Positions 14,512-60,028 are shown, numbered from the stretch's first letter. The stretch: DNA of 64,000 nt from a virus (IMGVR_UViG_2595698524_000001:1-64000); one strand, 5' to 3'. Program-made: numbers and translations. The notes: a model not told the origin generated them from the letters alone.

Positions 14512-14607
14512 ATAGATTTTATTGTATTGAACCAGAGCGCTTAAAACCGTTCTACGTGTTTGAGTAATGTTATTGAAAGATTATTCAAACATATTTTATT
14601 CCCGTGA
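14512..14607 (+). promoter_or_regulatory. tandem putative early promoters of the chimallin gene
   Basis: ATAGATT-TTA-TTGTA-TTGA (14512) and ACATATT-TTA-TTCCC-GTGA (14589). Confidence 0.55.
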
Positions 14608-14656
14608 GTTAACTCAAAGTAATCATTTCAATCTCTATAAACAGGAAATAAATACC

Positions 14657-16438
14657 ATGGTAGAATTCTACGACGAAAACAAAAACTCCAACACTTCTAA
14701 AGACTCTAACGCTGCTACTGGCAACGTTCAGGGCTTTTCTGTTGGTACCGCTGCCGAAATGAACATGGCCTTTGAGTGGAGCTCCGTCAACTCTCAGGCT
14801 GGTAAGTTCGTCGAGCTGATTAAAGAAGCGGCGAAAGAGAACAAGTATCTGGCCAACTTCCAGGTCGGTACTGTTGATGCGGTAACCGGTGAATTCGGTT
14901 CTGCGGCTTACGTCGCTGGTGAACTGCGTGGCATCCCGCTGTTCGGTATCGTGTTCTTCGAGAAGGGCCTGTCCCTGCGTCTGGTGGTAAACAACAATCA
15001 GGAAGATTACTACTCTATCGCTTCCCTGATTAACAAAGACGTTATCGCCACTGTTGCGAAAACGCTGAAAACCACCCACAGCCTGTCTCAGGACCCGCGC
15101 TTCATTTCCATCAACACCATCCCGGATCTGGATATCGCCCTGACCCGTGAGCGTGCTCTGTCCATCATGGGCCAGATGATGACCAGCATCTTCGGTCGTG
15201 CTTCTGGCTATCTGGGCAAACTGGTCGTCACCAAAAACGACAAGTTCATCGCACAGGTTGGCAGTATCGGTGAAGGCGCAGTGCTGGACGTAAACGGTCA
15301 CGCACAGCGTGCTGACTTCGGTATCAAACTGTCTCACGTGCCGATGCAGCAGAACACTGCACCGACTCTGATGTCCGGTACCAACGCTCAGCAGTATCCG
15401 AACTGCGCCGCAGCTGGTTACGCTAACCTGCGTTACACCGGTATCGTGAAGAACGCTGACGGTTCCATGAAAGACCGCCGTCAGATTTCTCCTGAGCTGG
15501 TTGTGAGCCTGATGGACTCCTCTACCCTGACTGCGAACGCACCGTTCGAACGTCAGCTTCTGATGCTGGGTGTTGCGGCTAAAACTGCAGCGCTGGGCGG
15601 CTGGATGGAATTCATCAAGAACTCTCTGGACGGTAAGACTCGTAAAATCTCTGCGCTGGCGCAGAACTGCAACTGGGGTGCAGACGTGTCTAACACCGAC
15701 TGGAAAGCGATGGACAAATCTGCAGAAGCGGCTGAACGCTTCCTGCGTGAGTTCTGCTACGAAACCGCTGGTCTGGTAGTTGAGCACCGTGCTGGTAACG
15801 GTATCGGTGGTCTGATTGGTCTGCTGTCCGAAGTGGCACAGAACAAACCTCAGGCGCTGGAAACCCTGCTGGCTCTGCTGGACAACATGTTCCCGGCTGT
15901 AGACAATCTGAAGTTCTCCGATGGTCTGCGTCAGGCATTCGGCGGTAACGTTACACTGAACGCGTCTCACATCGTGTCTGGTGTTGTTCCGACCGTAGCC
16001 GGTGTTTACCGTGGTTCTAACGGCCTGCGTTCATACTCCGATATGGACCTGCTGCGCACCACTACCCACCTGGGTGACGACCGTGCCGAAGTGCTGAAAT
16101 ACTTCCGTGCTCAGTCCTACAAACACCGTAACATGTCTCCGAAACAGCAGCGTATCTATCTGGCGCAGCTGGCTAACAGCATGTTCTCTGGCAACGATCC
16201 GATTCCGACCGGTGAAGCTGTTCAGATTTCCATCAACCCCACTTTCGCTAAGTTCCTGTACGAAGCGATTGATGCACACGGCCTGTTGCAGCTGACTGGC
16301 GTTAACGCTGTGTCTGTTGCGGATTCCGTACCGTTCTACAACAACACTGGCGAACTGTTCGTAATGTCTGGTGTTGGTGGCGTGTCTACCAACAGCGCGT
16401 TCGACTTCGCTCAGCAGTCTGGCTATTTCAGCATGTAA
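14657..16438 (+). CDS. chmA: chimallin, major phage nuclear shell protein (phiKZ gp54-like)
   Basis: ~593 aa; very strong high-expression codon bias; directly upstream of the nvRNAP beta' N-terminal gene, the conserved chmA position; AGGA RBS. Confidence 0.8.
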   Translation: MVEFYDENKNSNTSKDSNAATGNVQGFSVGTAAEMNMAFEWSSVNSQAGKFVELIKEAAKENKYLANFQVGTVDAVTGEFGSAAYVAGELRGIPLFGIVFFEKGLSLRLVVNNNQEDYYSIASLINKDVIATVAKTLKTTHSLSQDPRFISINTIPDLDIALTRERALSIMGQMMTSIFGRASGYLGKLVVTKNDKFIAQVGSIGEGAVLDVNGHAQRADFGIKLSHVPMQQNTAPTLMSGTNAQQYPNCAAAGYANLRYTGIVKNADGSMKDRRQISPELVVSLMDSSTLTANAPFERQLLMLGVAAKTAALGGWMEFIKNSLDGKTRKISALAQNCNWGADVSNTDWKAMDKSAEAAERFLREFCYETAGLVVEHRAGNGIGGLIGLLSEVAQNKPQALETLLALLDNMFPAVDNLKFSDGLRQAFGGNVTLNASHIVSGVVPTVAGVYRGSNGLRSYSDMDLLRTTTHLGDDRAEVLKYFRAQSYKHRNMSPKQQRIYLAQLANSMFSGNDPIPTGEAVQISINPTFAKFLYEAIDAHGLLQLTGVNAVSVADSVPFYNNTGELFVMSGVGGVSTNSAFDFAQQSGYFSM

Positions 16439-21784: not shown

Positions 21785-22480
21785 ATGGCGTTCAACCATA
21801 AGTTTCTTAAAGACAAATCTATTCTGCCGAAAACCAAACCTGACGCACGTGGCCAGCAAAAATCCATGTCCATTGAGCCGAACATGTTCAATGGTGAGTG
21901 TGAGGGGCTGACCTTCAAATACTTCTTCGGGAAGGGCGAAGGTCTGTACCCGGCAATGAAACTGGGCACCCTGCGCGCAATCTGCGACGCGCTGGAAGAT
22001 GCCCTGCGTAACAAAGAGCAGAGCAAGCTCGAGTTCGAAATCACCAACAGTCAGAACAAACCGGCGACCATTATTACCGTGGGTCGTGGCGAAGATCTGA
22101 TTCCGTTCCTCGGTCTGTCCGGTGATGTTAACGGCCAGAAAAAGGCACAGAAGTTCATGTGGTATGCTGACAAAGGCGTGCGCTTGCTGCGTAACGGTCA
22201 GCCGGTTCCGGATCTGGAAGTGCATGAGCGTATGACCCGTACGTTCGTAAAAGAGTTCGACCTGTTTGTTCGTGCACTGGAAGACGTGTTCAATCCGCGT
22301 GAATGGAACAACAACGGTGGCGGCGGTCAAGCTAGCCGTGGTTCTTATCAGGGTGGTGGTCAGCGTCAAGGTGGTGGCTCTTATCAGGGAGGCGGCTCTT
22401 ATCAAGGCGGTGGTCAGTCTGGCGGTCAAGGCGGCGGTTCTATGGCTGCGGCGACTAACGAATACGACGAAATGTTCTAA
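21785..22480 (+). CDS. chmC: ChmC-like nucleus-associated RNA-binding protein (phiKZ gp67-like)
   Basis: folded N-terminal domain plus Gly/Ser/Tyr/Gln low-complexity tail; directly upstream of the gp68/gp69/gp70-like genes, as described for ChmC. Confidence 0.7.
   Translation: MAFNHKFLKDKSILPKTKPDARGQQKSMSIEPNMFNGECEGLTFKYFFGKGEGLYPAMKLGTLRAICDALEDALRNKEQSKLEFEITNSQNKPATIITVGRGEDLIPFLGLSGDVNGQKKAQKFMWYADKGVRLLRNGQPVPDLEVHERMTRTFVKEFDLFVRALEDVFNPREWNNNGGGGQASRGSYQGGGQRQGGGSYQGGGSYQGGGQSGGQGGGSMAAATNEYDEMF
22338..22412 (+). repeat. coding repeat, 3x GG(T/C)TCTTATCA(G/A)GG (GSYQG)
   Basis: three near-identical units in the ChmC-like tail. Confidence 0.8.
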
Positions 22481-22534: not shown

Positions 22535-22553
22535 ATATATGTTATCGTCGTGA
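22535..22553 (+). promoter_or_regulatory. putative early promoter
   Basis: ATATATG-TTA-TCGTC-GTGA. Confidence 0.6.
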
Positions 22554-22573
22554 ATAACCCGAGGAGCAATCTG

Positions 22574-24214
22574 ATGAACATTGAGAAAATTCGCGAAAGC
22601 GTGGTGATTAGTCGTAACGGCGAAACCATTACTTTTAATAACGTGCCGCACATCAACCGTAAAAAGAACACGGTCAAGATTCGCATGGAAGATGATGGGG
22701 ATTTCCTGTCACGTGACCAACTGCTGTTCCTCGAACTGAATCGTCTCTGGGGTACGTTCTCCGAGAAAGAACTCGACGAAGTTTGGGAGATTTACAAGAA
22801 TGTGCAACTGCTGGTTACTGAACCGGACGATGTACGTTTTGAAGTGTTGCCGGACATGCTGCGTCGTTTGGTTGAGCTGCATTACGTCGACCGTTACATT
22901 GCACTTTACCCGCAAGACAAAGTGTGGATTCCGAAGAAGCTCGAAAACAACTTCGACAACATTTCTCCGAACTACACGGAAGCCATGACGTATCTGGTCT
23001 CTGACTATTATAACCTCATGACTTTCACTCTGGCATTGAAACCACTGATTCCGGTCTTCGCGGCATTCGGTGCGTATCCACCTGTGAAGATGAACTCACA
23101 GTCTGCTCGTCGTAAAATCGTGACCTTGACGAACGATTGCTTCGAAATTCTGCTGACGTCCAAACTGGGCAGTCATCCAGCGATTCAAAAGCTGCGCGAC
23201 TCTTTACCACACACCATCGTGAAAATTCAGAAGGAAGCCGGTTCCCAGAACTCGAATGCTCCGTCACTGACACTGATTGCGGTCGTGGAAGGTTATGGCA
23301 TCGACGCGCTGGAAGAGTACATCACAGCATTTACTGTTGTGAACATTCTGGCACTGCAACCGGTAGGTGCGGATTTCAAAGAAGGTGTGATGGATGAAAA
23401 CTCCATCGTAAGCCGCATCTTCTATGGCATTCGTCCGGAAGTGTTGAATGGGTTTGCTGATAAAATGTCAGCACACCACGTCACCGAGAAACCGCATGCG
23501 TCCACCATGAAACTCAATGGCGAGCGCGGCAAGACCTCCGTGATTGATACCGTGAATGCACGCTCTACAGCACCGATTAAAGAATCGGAACGTACGGCGT
23601 TTTACTTTACGGAGTATCGTCGAGCGTTGAAACGTATCGAAGCAGACATCGCACCAGCCCGATGCAAACAGCACATCGATGGGATTATCGAACATCATCC
23701 ACGTCCGTTCTCTGAACTGCACGAGTGGTTGGTGTCGGTGGTGTTACATCGTCATGCGCACCGCGGTACGTATAAAGATGTCGACCAGAAAGCCTTCATG
23801 CATGGCATGGGCATTGCGCAGGCAATCTGGGCAAGCTATGGAATGTTTTCGGCCGCAGCACTGCTAAGCTGTTCTGCGTTACCGGGTCGTGACGGTTTGG
23901 AATATCCGTTCCTGCCAATCGAATCCGATATCAAAGAAAAGTCGGAAATATATTATCCTCAGGCATACCGTGCGCATAAAGGTACGGAAACCATCAGTCC
24001 TTTACGTGAGTCAGTGATGATTCTGATTCGCGATTACATTAACCCGTACAGCTTCCATCTGAAAACCTCACCTGAGGTCGCAGAGATTCTGGGCGTGCAA
24101 CCGGAAGTGAAAGGTTACATCCCGGGTAAGAATCTCCAAATGGAGTTGTCCGAAATGCTACTGATTCAGGCACGACAGAAACATCGTGAACTGCATCCGT
24201 TGGCCGCCGAATAA
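22574..24214 (+). CDS. non-virion RNAP promoter-specificity (sigma-like) subunit (phiKZ gp68-like)
   Basis: ~546 aa helical protein with GAGGAG RBS; conserved position between ChmC and PicA. Confidence 0.65.
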   Translation: MNIEKIRESVVISRNGETITFNNVPHINRKKNTVKIRMEDDGDFLSRDQLLFLELNRLWGTFSEKELDEVWEIYKNVQLLVTEPDDVRFEVLPDMLRRLVELHYVDRYIALYPQDKVWIPKKLENNFDNISPNYTEAMTYLVSDYYNLMTFTLALKPLIPVFAAFGAYPPVKMNSQSARRKIVTLTNDCFEILLTSKLGSHPAIQKLRDSLPHTIVKIQKEAGSQNSNAPSLTLIAVVEGYGIDALEEYITAFTVVNILALQPVGADFKEGVMDENSIVSRIFYGIRPEVLNGFADKMSAHHVTEKPHASTMKLNGERGKTSVIDTVNARSTAPIKESERTAFYFTEYRRALKRIEADIAPARCKQHIDGIIEHHPRPFSELHEWLVSVVLHRHAHRGTYKDVDQKAFMHGMGIAQAIWASYGMFSAAALLSCSALPGRDGLEYPFLPIESDIKEKSEIYYPQAYRAHKGTETISPLRESVMILIRDYINPYSFHLKTSPEVAEILGVQPEVKGYIPGKNLQMELSEMLLIQARQKHRELHPLAAE

Positions 24215-24252: not shown

Positions 24253-25971
24253 ATGAAACTGCTGCAACTGCAAATGTACCCGGTCTACGAAATCCCTGAG
24301 CAGATTCGTCGCCGAATTGCATTTAACGCAGGTACCGAAGACCTGACCCATCTGAGCGATGTGATTGTTCAGAATGGTGCGGGCGCGACCAGCGCGTTTG
24401 ATTATGGCGAAGCAATGGGTAAGATTGTAGGCTTTGACCCGACCCCGGGCAGCTTCGAGAAACCGATTGTTGATATTTCCGAACAGAACAATACTGTCAC
24501 CCCTTTCCGCTTCGAGCAGCGTAGCCGCATTTATAACTTCGTGGCGGTAGTGGTGGTAAACCCAATCAACGAAACTCGCTCGCAGGAGATTCGTTACATC
24601 CTGACCGGTTACACGTCAGAAGCCGACCCGACGTTGGCGAGCCTGTTGCCTGACGATATGGTGTTGTACATCAACGACATCTATGGCGTGCGTCTGAGCT
24701 ATAAGTACGACGCCGTCGGTAACCGCTATGTTGACCCGAACTCGTTCCAGATGGTAGACAACTATGTACTGTCGAACACACTGGTAACGCAACAGGGTAC
24801 CGAACTGACGCTGGACCCGATTGCGCTGACTAAGGCAGCCAAAACGGTTTCCAATCTGGACGTGAATCCGCTGGCAGGTGAGGAGCTTTCCTTTAGCGTC
24901 AACTCCGATAGCGTACTTGGCCCGTCACTGCAATCTGAAGCGCAACTGCTTACAGCGCAGCTGACTCGTCCGGAGTCGTTCATCGGTGCGATGTCCACGG
25001 GCTTCCTTAACTCATTACTGAATGAGCAGGAGTCTAACTCCCTGACGGGCATCAATGCGTTCTTTGATAACGGCACCATGTCACTGGAAGGTGAGATGCG
25101 TCGTCTGGGCGTAGTGAAGTCGTATAAGAACCACAACTTCGCTAACGCCATGCGTACTGCATTGTCACGTAACAACTTCGTGACCGATGCTTATCGCCAG
25201 TCTCAGGATGCTAAGTTCCGTCTGGGTGACCTGCGTGCTGTGCTGTTCAACCCGGCTGACCTCAACCGTATGCTGCAAGAATCGCTGAGCACCGCTCTGC
25301 GTAACATGCACATGGGTATTGATAAAACCGATAGCTGGACTAGCACCAACGGCTTTGCTACCGAAGCGTCATTGGTAGCGTATGACGTTGGCATGCGCAT
25401 GGGTCAGGTGATGGCTAAGAACCTGATTAATACCGTACGTGTCGTCTTTGACAACCGTATGGCGAACTTCGACACGCAGCCACAGCTGTCGGTGGTGCCG
25501 GGTTCGGCGGAGTCAATTAGTGAAGGGGGTATCCCAGCGCTGATGGCTCGCAACTTCATGCGTGAAATGATGCAGACCTTCATTGCGGCAACTCGTCACA
25601 ATGCGGTTCGTGTCAAAATGGTGGTGATTGCCCGTCTGGGTCAGGTAATCCGTATTGAGATTACGCCGGACGGTGAACCAACCACCGAGTTCTACACCTT
25701 CGCGTCGTTCATGTCTTCCCGTATGCATATCGGCCTGACCTACGACAATACTTACAACAACACCGTTGCGAAAAATACCAGCACGTTGTTCAATACAATC
25801 CAACACGGCTTTGATGAGTATACTCGTCGCGATTCCTCGAACGCGGTGATGGTCTCATTGTCGAATGTTGCTCCGTCTAACGGGTTTACGATTCCGGATT
25901 CACCGGTCTCCCAGCCCGCGTCTGGCGGGTTCTCGTTCGGCAGCGATGACGTTACTGGATTCAAACTCTAA
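24253..25971 (+). CDS. picA: phage-nucleus protein import factor PicA/Imp1 (phiKZ gp69-like)
   Basis: 572 aa; synteny in the ChmC-gp68-gp69-gp70-nvRNAP block. Confidence 0.65.
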   Translation: MKLLQLQMYPVYEIPEQIRRRIAFNAGTEDLTHLSDVIVQNGAGATSAFDYGEAMGKIVGFDPTPGSFEKPIVDISEQNNTVTPFRFEQRSRIYNFVAVVVVNPINETRSQEIRYILTGYTSEADPTLASLLPDDMVLYINDIYGVRLSYKYDAVGNRYVDPNSFQMVDNYVLSNTLVTQQGTELTLDPIALTKAAKTVSNLDVNPLAGEELSFSVNSDSVLGPSLQSEAQLLTAQLTRPESFIGAMSTGFLNSLLNEQESNSLTGINAFFDNGTMSLEGEMRRLGVVKSYKNHNFANAMRTALSRNNFVTDAYRQSQDAKFRLGDLRAVLFNPADLNRMLQESLSTALRNMHMGIDKTDSWTSTNGFATEASLVAYDVGMRMGQVMAKNLINTVRVVFDNRMANFDTQPQLSVVPGSAESISEGGIPALMARNFMREMMQTFIAATRHNAVRVKMVVIARLGQVIRIEITPDGEPTTEFYTFASFMSSRMHIGLTYDNTYNNTVAKNTSTLFNTIQHGFDEYTRRDSSNAVMVSLSNVAPSNGFTIPDSPVSQPASGGFSFGSDDVTGFKL

Positions 25972-25983
25972 AAGGAAACCACG

Positions 25984-27399
25984 ATGAGTACCAAGCTGAA
26001 CATTATTGACTTCTACCGCGCCCAGTTGGATTCACTGGGCTTTGGGGATAAAGATGCGTTCCTCTTCCACAAAGAAGATGGTGAGCTGACTGACCCGGTG
26101 AAGTTCAAGTACGCAGGTGAGGAGCGCCAGATGGTGCTCCCTACTTACCAGATGATTAAAGCTGGTTTGCGTGATGAGTTGGGTAACGATTGCCATGCGT
26201 ATCACCCACTGTGTGAATCGGTCATGACGGGTGAGTCCGGCACCATCCGCTTCCTTAAGCAGGCGATTAAGAATCAGCTGTACGTGAAAGGCATGAGCTT
26301 TATCACGTTCCTGATTAAGGCGCTGGCCGATGGGAAGTCTTCACGTTCCGCAACCTTTAAGAAGTTTGTGGCGGAGATGACCAAAGGCATCAAAGATCCG
26401 AAAATCGATGATAAGTTACTGCGTAGCTGGATGAACGTGGCGACGTATATCAAAGATAAGATGGATAAGAAGCAGCGCATTATGCTGAGCATCCAGCCTG
26501 ACCAGAAAATCGACGGTGCGAAATATCTGCGGGCGGCGAACTACAAGCATGCGTTCAGTGAAGAGCAGGATGACGGTACAGCAACGTACTTCGGTGTCCG
26601 TCTGGAACGTAAGCAGGACAAAGTGATTATTCACAACCTGCTCACCACCGTGTTCGGTTGGTATCCGGAAGAGATGGGGTCAAACGACCAACGTGCCTAT
26701 TACGGTTCGTTGATTCGTGGCTGGGCGGAATTCGTGTTGAAGTTTAATCAACATGCAAAAGGTCTGAAAGATATCGTTCCAGACTACGAGCTGTTGAATG
26801 ACACGTGGCTGCCTGAGCTGGACAACATGCGTGAGTACGACGGGAAAATTCAAACCCTGCCGTACAATACCGGTAGTCGTGATGCCAATGTCGAAACCAC
26901 GCAGAAAGATTTCCGTGTGGGTGGACAACGTAGTTACGAAGAGCCGGTTGCGCAGACTGCGACGGAAATCCGCAAAACGGAGAACGGGTTAATTGACCCT
27001 CTGTCTCTGTTGTCTCCGAAAACGGCACCGAACTCCGGTAACGTGTTTGTGAACGGTACCCGTCAGGTTGACCTGTCACAATACGCACCGATTGAACAGA
27101 AGCTGATTCGCGAAGGCCGTACTCAGGCACAGCCGTCGAAAATCTCTTCTATTCCGTTGTCACAAGCACTGGGTGGTGGTCATACGCCGCGTGCGGGAAG
27201 CGCTGCTGATTTCTTCGGCGGTAACACTGGTAACGTGTTCACCAACACAACCAGTAACAGCAACCCGTTCACCAGTACCACTTCCAGCAATCCGTTTGCA
27301 GCTGCGTCGAATAACAATCCGTTCACCGGGGGTGGTAACAATAACCCATTCGGTGGTGGCGGTAGTAACGACAACAGTTTGTTTAGCGGTATGCTGTAA
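25984..27399 (+). CDS. nucleus-block protein (phiKZ gp70-like) with NPF/FG-rich tail
   Basis: 471 aa; C-terminal N/S/T/G-rich region with 4x NPF, 2x NVF and FFGG. Confidence 0.7.
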   Translation: MSTKLNIIDFYRAQLDSLGFGDKDAFLFHKEDGELTDPVKFKYAGEERQMVLPTYQMIKAGLRDELGNDCHAYHPLCESVMTGESGTIRFLKQAIKNQLYVKGMSFITFLIKALADGKSSRSATFKKFVAEMTKGIKDPKIDDKLLRSWMNVATYIKDKMDKKQRIMLSIQPDQKIDGAKYLRAANYKHAFSEEQDDGTATYFGVRLERKQDKVIIHNLLTTVFGWYPEEMGSNDQRAYYGSLIRGWAEFVLKFNQHAKGLKDIVPDYELLNDTWLPELDNMREYDGKIQTLPYNTGSRDANVETTQKDFRVGGQRSYEEPVAQTATEIRKTENGLIDPLSLLSPKTAPNSGNVFVNGTRQVDLSQYAPIEQKLIREGRTQAQPSKISSIPLSQALGGGHTPRAGSAADFFGGNTGNVFTNTTSNSNPFTSTTSSNPFAAASNNNPFTGGGNNNPFGGGGSNDNSLFSGML

Positions 27400-27401
27400 G
27401 C

Positions 27402-27438
27402 AAAAAATAAATAAGGGGTTAGCACCCCTTATTTTTTT
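27402..27438. terminator. bidirectional terminator
   Basis: AAAAAATAAATAAGGGGT-TAGC-ACCCCTTATTTTTTT. Confidence 0.85.
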
Positions 27439-27760
27439 AAACGACCGCGGAGTCCAAGATGCTGGCTACCACACCGATGTCCGGAATCATCAATGTCTGG
27501 ATATCAGGGGTAAACTCCATCGGGCTTCGCAGATTGTTTAAAAGCATGATTGGGAAGACCAGTTCGCTTGGGATACCGGCCAGTCTGCAATACGCATACA
27601 GGCTGTGCATCTCCGGATACGAGTAGCGTGGGTCTACCGCTACTGCTTTCTTTGTGTCCGGATGGTTCCGCAAGTAGTCGAGATGGTCAATGATGAGTTG
27701 GCGCTCTATTGTGCTAAGGGCAGGAATGGCCGACTCGTAAGTTACAAAGCTATCAAGCAC
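27437..27760 (-). CDS. small LysM-like / T4 gp53-like baseplate protein
   Basis: GTG after AAGGAGG; IMLLNNLRSP...TLMIP resembles the LysM I..lN.l..P...L.IP pattern. Confidence 0.5.
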   Translation of the reverse strand: MLDSFVTYESAIPALSTIERQLIIDHLDYLRNHPDTKKAVAVDPRYSYPEMHSLYAYCRLAGIPSELVFPIMLLNNLRSPMEFTPDIQTLMIPDIGVVASILDSAVV

Positions 27761-58694: not shown

Positions 58695-60028
58695 TGCAGT
58701 TCATTCAAGCAGGTGGACGCCAAAAGTCCGAAGTCGTGACGGTCGAACCGCCCCGTCCCGAGATTACCAAAGCCAAAGACGGCGTGGTCGAAAAGACGAA
58801 CATCACCACCGAGCCTTCACGTACGACGGTAGTGGACTTGGAGCGTATCCCCAAGAGACACTTGTTGCAGTATACGTCAGGCTCGCCTTGGCCGGTGGAT
58901 TACTACCACCGACTGTCTGGGATAAATGACCCGAAGGCGTTCTTTGACCCGTCGGTGGACAACGCCACCCAGCAGTTCGAAGAAATCAAAGGGCAGATTC
59001 TTCGTGTTGGTTCTGCGTTAAGCTGGAATCAGGACTCCAAGAGTAAGGAGTTCACAATTACCGGTGAAGCAACGTTGGCCAACAGTATTATCCCGACCGA
59101 AGGTGATATCTTCATTGCTGACATCGGGGATGCACGTCGCGGCATCTTTGCGGTCAACAGCACCCAACGTAACGCCTACAACAAAATCGCCACGTACCAG
59201 ATTACGTACACAATGCTTTACGAGACCACACCGGAAACGGACAGGGCTTTACAGGCAGCGATTAAACGTACGTTCTTCTACGTGGCTGACCGGGCGTGGG
59301 TATCTGAAGACACGCTGTTAACGCAAGACGAGTATAACACGTTCCTGAGCGTGCGTGCTGAGCTGGAGTATCTGGAGAATATGTACGTTCGCATGTTCTA
59401 CGACCAAGAGATTGGTTCACTCCGCCTGCCAGTTACAGCCCGCAAGAACTACGATGTCTTCCTGACGCAGTTTGTGCGTGATATTGGCCTCAACCGTACC
59501 CCGGATGAGTTAACCATTTATCCACACACGCCATATCGTCATGATGACATGTTCACGGTCTGGAAAGCGCTCATCTGGCATAACGCGTCGATGTTACCGC
59601 AATGTCACAAAGACGGGAAGTGGTTCCAAGTCCAGACTTTCCGAACCTATCAGGTGCCGAACACCGTAGGGTGGTCACGCGTCCAATCCACCGTTTTCTT
59701 TGAGGGTCATTTACGACTGAAGAACATCCCGGACAACGTACCGGACTTCGACGCCGTAGAGGACCGTAGAAGCGATTTTACGGGCACTGTGCTTAAAGAC
59801 CTACCCTTGTTCGTTAAACCGTCGTTAACGCCGTATGTGTTCTCTGAGGCGTTTTACGGGGGGTCTTACGCATCGGTACTAGAATATGCAATCCAACTCT
59901 ATCTGAAGAAAGATAAACTGCGTGCGGATATCCCGTTAAAACTGGCAGAAGAATGTAAGCGACTCCCGCTGACTGCCCAGTTCTATTACGCACCGGTGGT
60001 TTATCTCCTGCTTAAATACGTGAGGTAA
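58694..60028 (+). CDS. virion structural protein (phiKZ gp99-like)
   Basis: 444 aa; TAATG coupling; synteny. Confidence 0.55.
   Translation: MQFIQAGGRQKSEVVTVEPPRPEITKAKDGVVEKTNITTEPSRTTVVDLERIPKRHLLQYTSGSPWPVDYYHRLSGINDPKAFFDPSVDNATQQFEEIKGQILRVGSALSWNQDSKSKEFTITGEATLANSIIPTEGDIFIADIGDARRGIFAVNSTQRNAYNKIATYQITYTMLYETTPETDRALQAAIKRTFFYVADRAWVSEDTLLTQDEYNTFLSVRAELEYLENMYVRMFYDQEIGSLRLPVTARKNYDVFLTQFVRDIGLNRTPDELTIYPHTPYRHDDMFTVWKALIWHNASMLPQCHKDGKWFQVQTFRTYQVPNTVGWSRVQSTVFFEGHLRLKNIPDNVPDFDAVEDRRSDFTGTVLKDLPLFVKPSLTPYVFSEAFYGGSYASVLEYAIQLYLKKDKLRADIPLKLAEECKRLPLTAQFYYAPVVYLLLKYVR

Follow-up and report, generated by a model that had tools for sequence, protein, structure and literature searches.

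The window studied here, a viral stretch of 64,000 nucleotides (IMGVR_UViG_2595698524_000001:1-64000) that is part of a jumbo phage of about 224 kb, carries two neighboring genes for proteins with low-complexity tails: a homolog of phiKZ gp70 and a homolog of PicA/Imp1 (phiKZ gp69), which is to our knowledge the sole central import factor known. We found that the tails of gp70 and PicA match each other in kind from one phage lineage to the next, in repeat units, in composition and in their last residues, and that a third protein, encoded beside a DNA polymerase gene, shares the repeat of the gp70 tail. We tentatively suggest that these tails are of a sticker-and-spacer kind, matched by lineage, and serve to gather shell-associated proteins, a role in co-assembly that we regard as slightly less than evenly probable. 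Such a matched sticker code among gp70, PicA and a third protein is new as far as our literature search reaches. The gp70-like protein is otherwise an ordinary member of a known shell-associated family, and its Phe tail is one flavor of a low-complexity tail found across that family. The relevant parts of the two proteins lie in the window as follows.

24253..25863, + strand: folded part of the PicA/Imp1-like protein, residues 1-537 (phrog_3141, AlphaFold2)
25864..25968, + strand: predicted disordered tail of the PicA-like protein, residues 538-572, with 4 Phe in GFT, GFSFG and GFKL (AlphaFold2)
25984..26853, + strand: folded N-terminal domain of the gp70-like protein, residues 1-290 (phrog_3520, AlphaFold2)
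26854..27183, + strand: predicted disordered linker of the gp70-like protein, residues 291-400, with a short helix at 369-376 and a conserved motif near S391 (AlphaFold2, alignment)
27184..27396, + strand: uncharged N/S/T/G tail of the gp70-like protein, residues 401-471, with 8 Phe, 4 NPF and the tip LFSGML (composition, AlphaFold2)

To compare tails between lineages, we gathered loci with both a gp70 and a PicA gene, drawing on named phages and on viral and metagenome contigs, and examined in each the tails of gp70, PicA, gp68 and ChmC. Of 32 loci with a gp70 match, 25 were kept, one per lineage, and 7 were dropped; near-duplicates (L003, L005, L011, L014, L015 and L018) were excluded, L022 is the same record as L019, and L021 is unpaired, its gp70 being cut. 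In all 25 lineages gp70 has a folded N-terminal domain followed by a low-complexity C-terminal tail. Across these lineages the gp70 and PicA tails shared 77 3-mers, against 43.0 ± 7.4 in permuted pairs, and their summed composition cosine was 18.6, against 16.2 ± 0.5; neither value was reached in any of 20000 permutations. The last six residues also resembled each other beyond permuted expectation (similarity 7 versus -106 ± 29, p = 2e-4), and in PhiPA3, 201phi2-1 and Halocynthia phage JM-2012 the two proteins end in near-identical residues, both tips being LGLL in PhiPA3. The matched units, with gp70 given first, are NSLLD and NSLLD, SFG and SFG, GGLGG and GGLGG, SLLGG and GSLL, MFG and LFG, and an Arg/Ser-rich tail paired with a charged one. 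No signal in 3-mers or cosine was found in the control pairs of gp70 with gp68 (p = 0.48 and 0.88), gp70 with ChmC (p = 0.97 and 0.61) and PicA with ChmC (p = 0.27 and 0.37). Since these controls are flat, genome-wide compositional drift is not the cause of the tail match.

The repeat of the window's gp70 tail recurs in one more protein of the same phage, P0233, which is encoded outside the window (514 residues; G000:C1:72665-74209, or L033:2666-4210; phrog_8185), with a DNA polymerase gene on one side and a virion gene on the other. It has four NPF units in an uncharged N/S/G linker (residues 106-175) between two domains. A scan of 234 greedily chosen open reading frames (ORFs) of the genome yielded 13 NPF, eight of which fall in the gp70-like protein (four) and P0233 (four). 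All ten P0233 homologs from ten related genomes have a low-complexity linker at the equivalent place, and over 11 lineages this linker shares 3-mers with the gp70 tail of its own phage more often than in permuted pairs (67 versus 47.9 ± 7.0, p = 0.007; cosine p = 0.002), with no co-variation with the end of gp68 in the same 11 lineages. Similarly, a degenerate DNA pattern for SLLGG in genome G007 formed clusters only in the gp70 tail (3 matches) and the P0233 homolog (2 matches), the remainder being 6 single matches elsewhere compared with 6 control matches. The longest exact DNA match between the NPF regions of the gp70-like protein and P0233 is 12 nt, so that it is at the protein level that their likeness is maintained. 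The NPF repeat is not explained by recent gene conversion or duplication, because the units use different synonymous codons, no tandem repeat was found and the longest match is so short. Searching the ESM Atlas with P0233 gave no usable match.

A corresponding pattern for NSLLD matched twice within the PicA tail in each of genomes G004 and G008, and in G010 it matched each of the PicA and gp70 tails once. A third match in two genomes was rejected as belonging to unrelated proteins, one inside a folded region and the other close to where a small ORF in L046 starts. As a separate observation, this small ORF (in G004:C1:57800-60800, holding position 59295) has a basic stretch followed by TGNSLLD, the unit of that lineage's PicA tail; it is a single match and may be due to chance.

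The gp70-like ORF of the window (25984-27399) encodes 471 aa. It matches phrog_3520 at E = 1.7e-132, the family that phiKZ gp70 matches at 4.1e-122, and aligns with phiKZ gp70 itself by BLASTP (E = 4e-9, 24% identity, 234 residues). An AlphaFold2 model run on a 29-sequence alignment had a mean predicted local distance difference test (pLDDT) score of at least 80 in 25 of the 29 ten-residue blocks of residues 1-290, with 78, 69, 68 and 74 in the remaining four. Scores fell below 50 at residues 291-361, at 379-390 and from 397 onward, residues 362-378 and 391-396 being excepted. The tail is predicted to be disordered, with pLDDT of 30-42 throughout residues 401-471. The folded domain did not lead to an assigned fold. 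Foldseek returned nothing for the model at E<=0.001, a sequence search of the PDB gave no match, the best VIA hit (Z 6.0, a designed helical protein) was under the tool's own noise guide, and the best ESM Atlas score for the domain (0.81) was within chance. Identity with Rhc, the RNase H-clamp, was ruled out, Rhc being phiKZ gp155 (PMC13648698; this and the other papers are cited from the portions of their text available to us).

The earlier note on this DNA had described an almost charge-free N/S/T/G tail with regularly spaced Phe, and this description was borne out. The composition of residues 401-471 is N14 G12 S10 T9 F8 A6 P5 D2 L2 R1 V1 M1, with 45 of the 71 residues being Asn, Gly, Ser or Thr and only 3 of the 71 being charged. 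Eight Phe fall in this tail, compared with 17 in residues 1-400, at positions 410, 411, 419, 429, 438, 447, 456 and 467. All the motifs that had been quoted are present: DFFGG (409-413), GNVFT (416-420), SNPFT (426-430), SNPFA (435-439), NNPFT (444-448), NNPFGG (453-458) and SLFSG (465-469). The six Phe of residues 414-471 are separated by successive gaps of 10, 9, 9, 9 and 11, a spacing equaled in regularity by 2 of 20000 shuffles of that segment, none of which (0/20000) contained four or more NPF. The repeat unit is thus NPF followed by T, A or G rather than FG, of which there are just two dipeptides (FFGG and PFGG). Tandem Repeats Finder detected no DNA-level repeat in the tail, and the four NPF units differ in their synonymous codons.

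Just ahead of the Phe tail, within the predicted disordered region, residues 386-397 (window 27139-27174, + strand) form a conserved motif of the type I-S-x-x-x-L-x-x-A-L-G-G, whose S391 is retained in at least 90% of the 29 aligned relatives. As a single family-wide motif of the disordered region, S-[ILVM]-x-[DE]-[LIVM]-[LIVMAG] was rejected, occurring in 12/145 sequences against 0.7 expected, which is enriched and far from universal. This pattern, a stricter form of the motif at residues 386-397, is often found at the extreme C-terminus of the Arg/Asp-rich tails of the gp70 family.

We then asked how far the Phe residues extend through the family. In the window's clade, which comprises six sequences with identity down to about 69%, all 8 tail Phe columns are 100% conserved, whereas the other tail columns average 68%. 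This pattern in the alignment indicates selection on the tail Phe within the clade. When 1.84 billion representatives were searched with a profile, 388 family members were found at E<=1e-10, and tails were classed from the last 70 residues of the 145 full-length sequences among the best 150 of these 388. A clearly low-complexity C-tail was found in 137/145, so the possibility that such tails are absent from most homologs does not hold. These 145 tails are divided into 101 uncharged polar, 36 Arg/Asp-rich and 8 mixed, and the dominant hydrophobic residue in the 101 uncharged polar tails was Tyr in 36, Met in 27, Phe in 19, Val in 9, Leu in 6 and Trp in 4. At least four FG dipeptides were found in 8/145. 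Conservation of the Phe repeat across homologs, which had been put forward as the check to make, therefore holds within the clade, in which 8/8 Phe columns are invariant, and fails across the family, with Phe the main sticker in 19/145. The family trait is a disordered sticker-and-spacer tail, not phenylalanine.

In a tree of the folded domain, Phe-type tails belong to the window's clade and three sister lineages. A large sister group near SPN3US-like phages has Leu tails (SLLGG, GGLGG and NSLL), and the tail of phiKZ gp70 is made up of Met/Gln/Pro. No conserved stretch was found in a broad family alignment of 66 sequences; the sister-clade alignment added 1 viral and 3 metagenome loci. Three records named as Salmonella phage SPFM proteins (P0042, P0043 and P0087) were excluded from every count. 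Their matches to the gp70 or PicA profiles are broken into numerous short pieces in scrambled order (15 stretches in P0042), and they look like assembly or annotation artefacts.

The partner of the gp70-like protein is encoded by the ORF at 24253-25971, which matches phrog_3141 at E = 1.2e-146, the family that phiKZ gp69 matches at 2.7e-179. A direct BLASTP comparison with phiKZ gp69 found no similarity (best E 0.33), and the PicA/Imp1 assignment therefore rests on the profile and on gene order. These two lines agree with the import-locus identity proposed earlier. In a PDB sequence search the single match, at E 0.52, was rejected as chance level. The AlphaFold2 model has a mean pLDDT of 77 and is folded up to residue 537, with the last 35 residues scoring below 50. 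The tail ends with NGFTI, GGFSFG and TGFKL, as had been quoted for it, with one FSFG, and its four Phe are retained in P0044-P0047, as read by eye. Residues 538-572 do carry charges, namely 3 Asp and 1 Lys.

The surrounding genes place both proteins in a known setting, and include the two proteins that served as controls above.

21785..22480, + strand: ChmC/Imp6-like protein, control tail (phrog_3284, the family of phiKZ gp67)
22550..24214, + strand: gp68-like non-virion RNA polymerase subunit, control without a low-complexity tail (phrog_3209, the family of phiKZ gp68)

Between 14.5 and 34 kb the window encodes, in order, chimallin-like, RNA polymerase beta-like, SbcD-like, gp66-like, ChmC-like, gp68-like, PicA-like and gp70-like proteins, two RNA polymerase subunits and a helicase, matching the order of phiKZ gp54 to gp75. 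As in phiKZ, the gp70-like gene lies directly 3' of the PicA/Imp1-like gene and 5' of the non-virion RNA polymerase genes. We identify the locus as the gp67-gp70 block of chimalliviruses, since it has PHROGs in common with phiKZ gp67, gp68, gp69 (PicA/Imp1) and gp70 together with an identical gene order. The core of gp68, PicA, gp70 and polymerase is present in 10/10 other named chimalliviruses that we read, the RTH11 record ending before the upstream genes. The closest named relatives of the window are the Erwinia phages Derbicus, EarlPhillipIV and pEa_SNUABM_38, with ~82% nucleotide identity across the locus. A Pfam search found no family for the six locus proteins or for P0233.

The nuclear shell protein bears on how the tails are read, because an FG-type tail had been claimed for it as well.

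14567..16438, + strand: chimallin-like shell protein (phrog_8316, E 4e-285)
16286..16435, + strand: C-terminal tail of the chimallin-like protein, last 50 residues, with several aromatic pegs (sequence)

The ORF at 14567-16438 is placed as phiKZ gp54 is relative to the RNA polymerase and SbcD-like genes, and its residues 417-596 weakly match phrog_4795, the 'nuclear shell protein' family (E 1.2e-8). It has no PDB sequence match and no pairwise similarity to phiKZ gp54, and is about 44% identical to one SPN3US ORF. SPN3US carries a diverged chimallin homolog (PMC9365700), which may be this ORF. The putative chimallin identity is drawn from gene order, the weak phrog_4795 match and the ~44% identity to the SPN3US ORF. 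The C-terminal sequence agrees with the one given in the earlier note; its FG-type interpretation was not supported. The N-terminal segment (NTS) and C-terminal segments (CTS1 and CTS2) of chimallin, the role of the CTS pair being described in 201phi2-1 and Goslar, dock on neighboring protomers and are needed for self-assembly (PMC9365700). Judged by position, the window's chimallin-like tail is probably the counterpart of CTS1/CTS2, and as the CTS segments link shell protomers its aromatic C-terminus needs no FG reading. The peg pattern was kept in 14/22 related loci, those reached by tblastn, and the Phe pegs persist in Leu-type lineages. Mimicry of the chimallin tip by PicA and gp70 tips, lineage by lineage, was tried and rejected (p 0.14-0.44 at 4, 5 and 6 residues, n = 12), leaving a general likeness of tip class. 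Individually, the PicA tip resembles the chimallin tip in 4/12 lineages (L002, L004, L010 and L016; 5-residue score >=7).

The gp70-like protein, a member of the gp70/gp64 family, has a folded domain of ~290 residues and a predicted disordered C-terminal region. In the window's lineage, the last 70 residues place Phe stickers at intervals of 9-11 residues (NPF units) along an uncharged N/S/T/G spacer that closes in a hydrophobic tip. In the co-assembly that we favor, the job of this tail would be a weak, multivalent and lineage-specific association with phage proteins bearing the same kind of sticker, its partners being the PicA/Imp1 import factor next door and the third protein beside a DNA polymerase gene. 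The proteins would come together in one assembly at the phage nuclear shell, perhaps within the PicA punctum, with the tails either binding each other like with like or binding one co-evolving partner. That the tails meet is the simplest account because a sticker common to two or three proteins changes together, whereas other tails do not. We infer that they bind each other or a common partner at the import site. The meeting would be at the nuclear shell, since homologs are published as shell-localized: PhiPA3 gp64 and gp63 are on the nuclear shell and came down with ChmB (PMC10643120). In phiKZ, PicA/Imp1 is needed for selective import and forms one or two puncta on the shell (PMC11087766; 10.1101/2024.03.27.586873; review PMC12908238).

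Several observations weigh against co-assembly through matched tails. The permutations ignore phylogeny, and as about ten motif types hold the signal, the effective sample is smaller than 25. The tip score of the gp70-gp68 control pair was also raised (p 0.012). The low-complexity tail of PicA is missing in 5/25 lineages (L025-L029), in which the gp70 tail is kept, which means that the pairing does not hold everywhere. The window's own two tails have just one 3-mer in common, their likeness being one of type (small residue, Phe, Ser/Thr; cosine 0.81). The P0233 linker showed no co-variation with the PicA tail over the 11 lineages (p 0.08 and 0.70), and in 2/11 of these (L008 and L012) it shares zero 3-mers with the gp70 tail. 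Finally, the available text of the Imp1 preprint lists phiKZ gp70 as a nuclear rather than a shell protein and reports that gp67 but not gp70 co-purified with Imp1 from E. coli, in a pull-down that used FLAG-tagged gp70 (10.1101/2024.03.27.586873).

The main rival is short-motif docking, in which each NPF, SLLGG, NSLLD or similar unit serves as a linear motif for a folded receptor co-evolving with it. The repeats would then provide avidity, and the proteins carrying the motif would compete for the receptor or share it. The motifs are indeed short, sharply defined and repeated, with one unit occurring in up to three proteins per phage, and the match of gp70 and PicA tips (p 2e-4) would be expected of such a system, as would the likeness of PicA and chimallin tips in four of the 12 lineages. 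There is also a precedent in chimallin, which is assembled by tails docking on neighboring protomers (PMC9365700). The receptor, however, is so far a matter of candidates (a chimallin-lattice groove, a ChmB-like protein, or a domain of PicA or gp70). Against docking, chimallin tips do not co-vary with those of PicA or gp70, and the chimallin tail keeps its Phe pegs in lineages whose sticker is Leu. We consider docking on a folded receptor possible, if rather doubtful. A passive element, whether spacer, solubility tag or entropic bristle, whose likeness between proteins reflects mutational or compositional drift shared within each genome, would account for the wide variation of tail chemistry over the family, which is typical of weak sequence constraint. 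It would not account for Phe columns that stay invariant while the spacers drift, for ChmC tails and gp68 ends that do not track the gp70 tail of the same genome in motifs or composition, or for the concentration of 8 of the 13 NPF of the genome in two proteins with no DNA-level homogenization, and we regard it as quite improbable. Less probable still is a tail directed at the host, with repeats binding a host protein, for example a protease adaptor, a cytoskeletal factor or a chaperone. Host machinery commonly takes hold of proteins by hydrophobic C-terminal tips and by short motifs in repeated copies, but phages of one host differ in their stickers: GGLGG in Asesino (P0031), NSLL/RLGG in ChrisDB (P0016) and Caitlin (P0026), SLLGG in pEa_SNUABM_11 (P0029) and the Phe type in the PicA of Derbicus (P0045), all five being listed with the host Erwinia amylovora. 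A single host partner does not account for these changes of sticker, or for their occurring in step in two or three proteins of a phage, which makes this explanation very unlikely.

A convergent FG-type selective barrier or docking mesh had been proposed for these tails. The docking mesh fits the co-variation of gp70 and PicA; the FG part does not fit the family, in which Phe is not the hallmark. In its full form, as an analog of FG nucleoporins, the proposal holds that the tails of gp70, PicA and other proteins form a cohesive phase within a gap in the shell, keeping inert proteins out and letting in those with matching surfaces or repeats. Like GLFG-type nucleoporins, the window's tail combines predicted disorder with nearly uncharged N/S/T/G-rich spacers and a Phe pitch of ~9-11, and such tails belong to proteins associated with a selective nuclear boundary. 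The import factor has the same type of tail, a protein encoded next to the DNA polymerase and possibly a nuclear cargo has the same repeat, and sister lineages (P0089, P0092, P0146 and P0227) have 9-14 Phe in the last 100 residues, with fuller FG-type repeats. Nucleoporin FG domains, however, have tens of repeats over hundreds of residues, whereas the unit here is NPF, with 2 FG dipeptides and 8 Phe in about 60 residues. We know of no pore or transport receptors for the phage nucleus. Gp70 relatives replace Phe with Leu, Met, Tyr, Trp or Arg/Asp repeats, and there is no homology to nucleoporins. The barrier reading is therefore thin: the tail is short, most of the family uses another sticker, a quarter of the tails (36/145) are highly charged, and PicA goes without such a tail in some lineages. 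In addition, import selectivity and the choice of cargo map to folded surfaces of PicA/Imp1 and the cargo rather than to repeats (PMC11087766; 10.1101/2024.03.27.586873), and gp70 is absent from the hits of every import selection in the available text of the latter. We regard a true nucleoporin analog as distinctly unlikely.

In a further reading, the matched tails of PicA/Imp1, gp70 and at least one replication-linked protein would associate like with like in a lineage-coded cohesive patch at the import site, and proteins with the right repeat would be concentrated there or passed through. We think this unlikely. If it were true, it would be a convergent miniature of the FG-nucleoporin principle, with a sticker code that differs by phage lineage and that could keep the proteins of co-infecting relatives apart. 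Should the sticker code aid recognition, it would explain species-specific import between related phages. The co-varying chemistry of the tails provides a testable handle on how proteins gather at the phage nuclear shell.

Among known systems, the closest is the family of phiKZ gp70, PhiPA3 gp64 and 201phi2-1 gp126 (phrog_3520), which shares with the window's protein the PHROG, the place in the genome and the combination of a folded N-terminal domain with a low-complexity C-tail. It is the Met/Gln/Pro tail of phiKZ gp70 that differs from the window's Phe in N/S/T/G. ChmC/Imp6 also has a disordered low-complexity C-tail and is encoded in the same gene block; its N/G-rich disordered tail forms condensates with RNA (PMC11077065). 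In the 22 lineages in which it was delimited, however, that tail is G/N/Q/Y/R-rich with an acidic tip, and it does not track the lineage-specific sticker that gp70 and PicA have in common. The NTS, CTS1 and CTS2 of chimallin (ChmA) are likewise flexible tails, docking on other protomers with short hydrophobic pegs (PMC9365700), and such pegs are found in the window's chimallin-like tail. They differ in being part of the shell protein itself, in having motifs that are conserved across sticker-switching lineages, and in tips that do not co-vary with gp70 or PicA. Prion-like sticker-and-spacer domains resemble the tails in having polar spacers with aromatic, Met or aliphatic residues, or mixed-charge Arg/Asp repeats. 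What sets the phage tails apart is that sticker identity is matched in two or three proteins per virus and switches together between lineages.

The literature search, which did not extend to the final journal version of the Imp1 study and the supplements, found no paper on disordered PicA/Imp1 tails or on FG repeats in jumbo phages. In their available text, the words 'disordered' and 'nucleoporin' are absent from the PicA paper (PMC11087766) and the 2025 review (PMC12908238), and the word 'disordered' is absent from the Imp1 preprint (10.1101/2024.03.27.586873) and the interaction-network paper (PMC10643120). No passage that we examined in these papers describes the gp70 tail or its match to the PicA tail.

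Further observations concern neighboring genes. The tail of the window's ChmC-like protein is G/S/Y/Q/R-rich with an acidic-aromatic tip; it occupies 22307-22477 (+ strand) and ends in EYDEMF, and most other loci have Asp/Glu followed by [IL]-P-F or similar. We take this tip to resemble the acidic tip of bacterial SSB. Downstream, the gp70-like gene adjoins a gene of 107 residues at 27437-27760 (- strand; phrog_3455). A reverse-strand gene of ~110-120 residues is annotated between the gp70 and polymerase genes in ten named phage loci, and in JM-2012 two small forward genes intervene. Outside the window, three adjoining small ORFs of 69, 147 and 130 residues lie at G000:C1:136011-137038 (- strand), and the two larger ones consist of nearly all Cys, Ser, Gly and Thr in C-S-G-x repeats.

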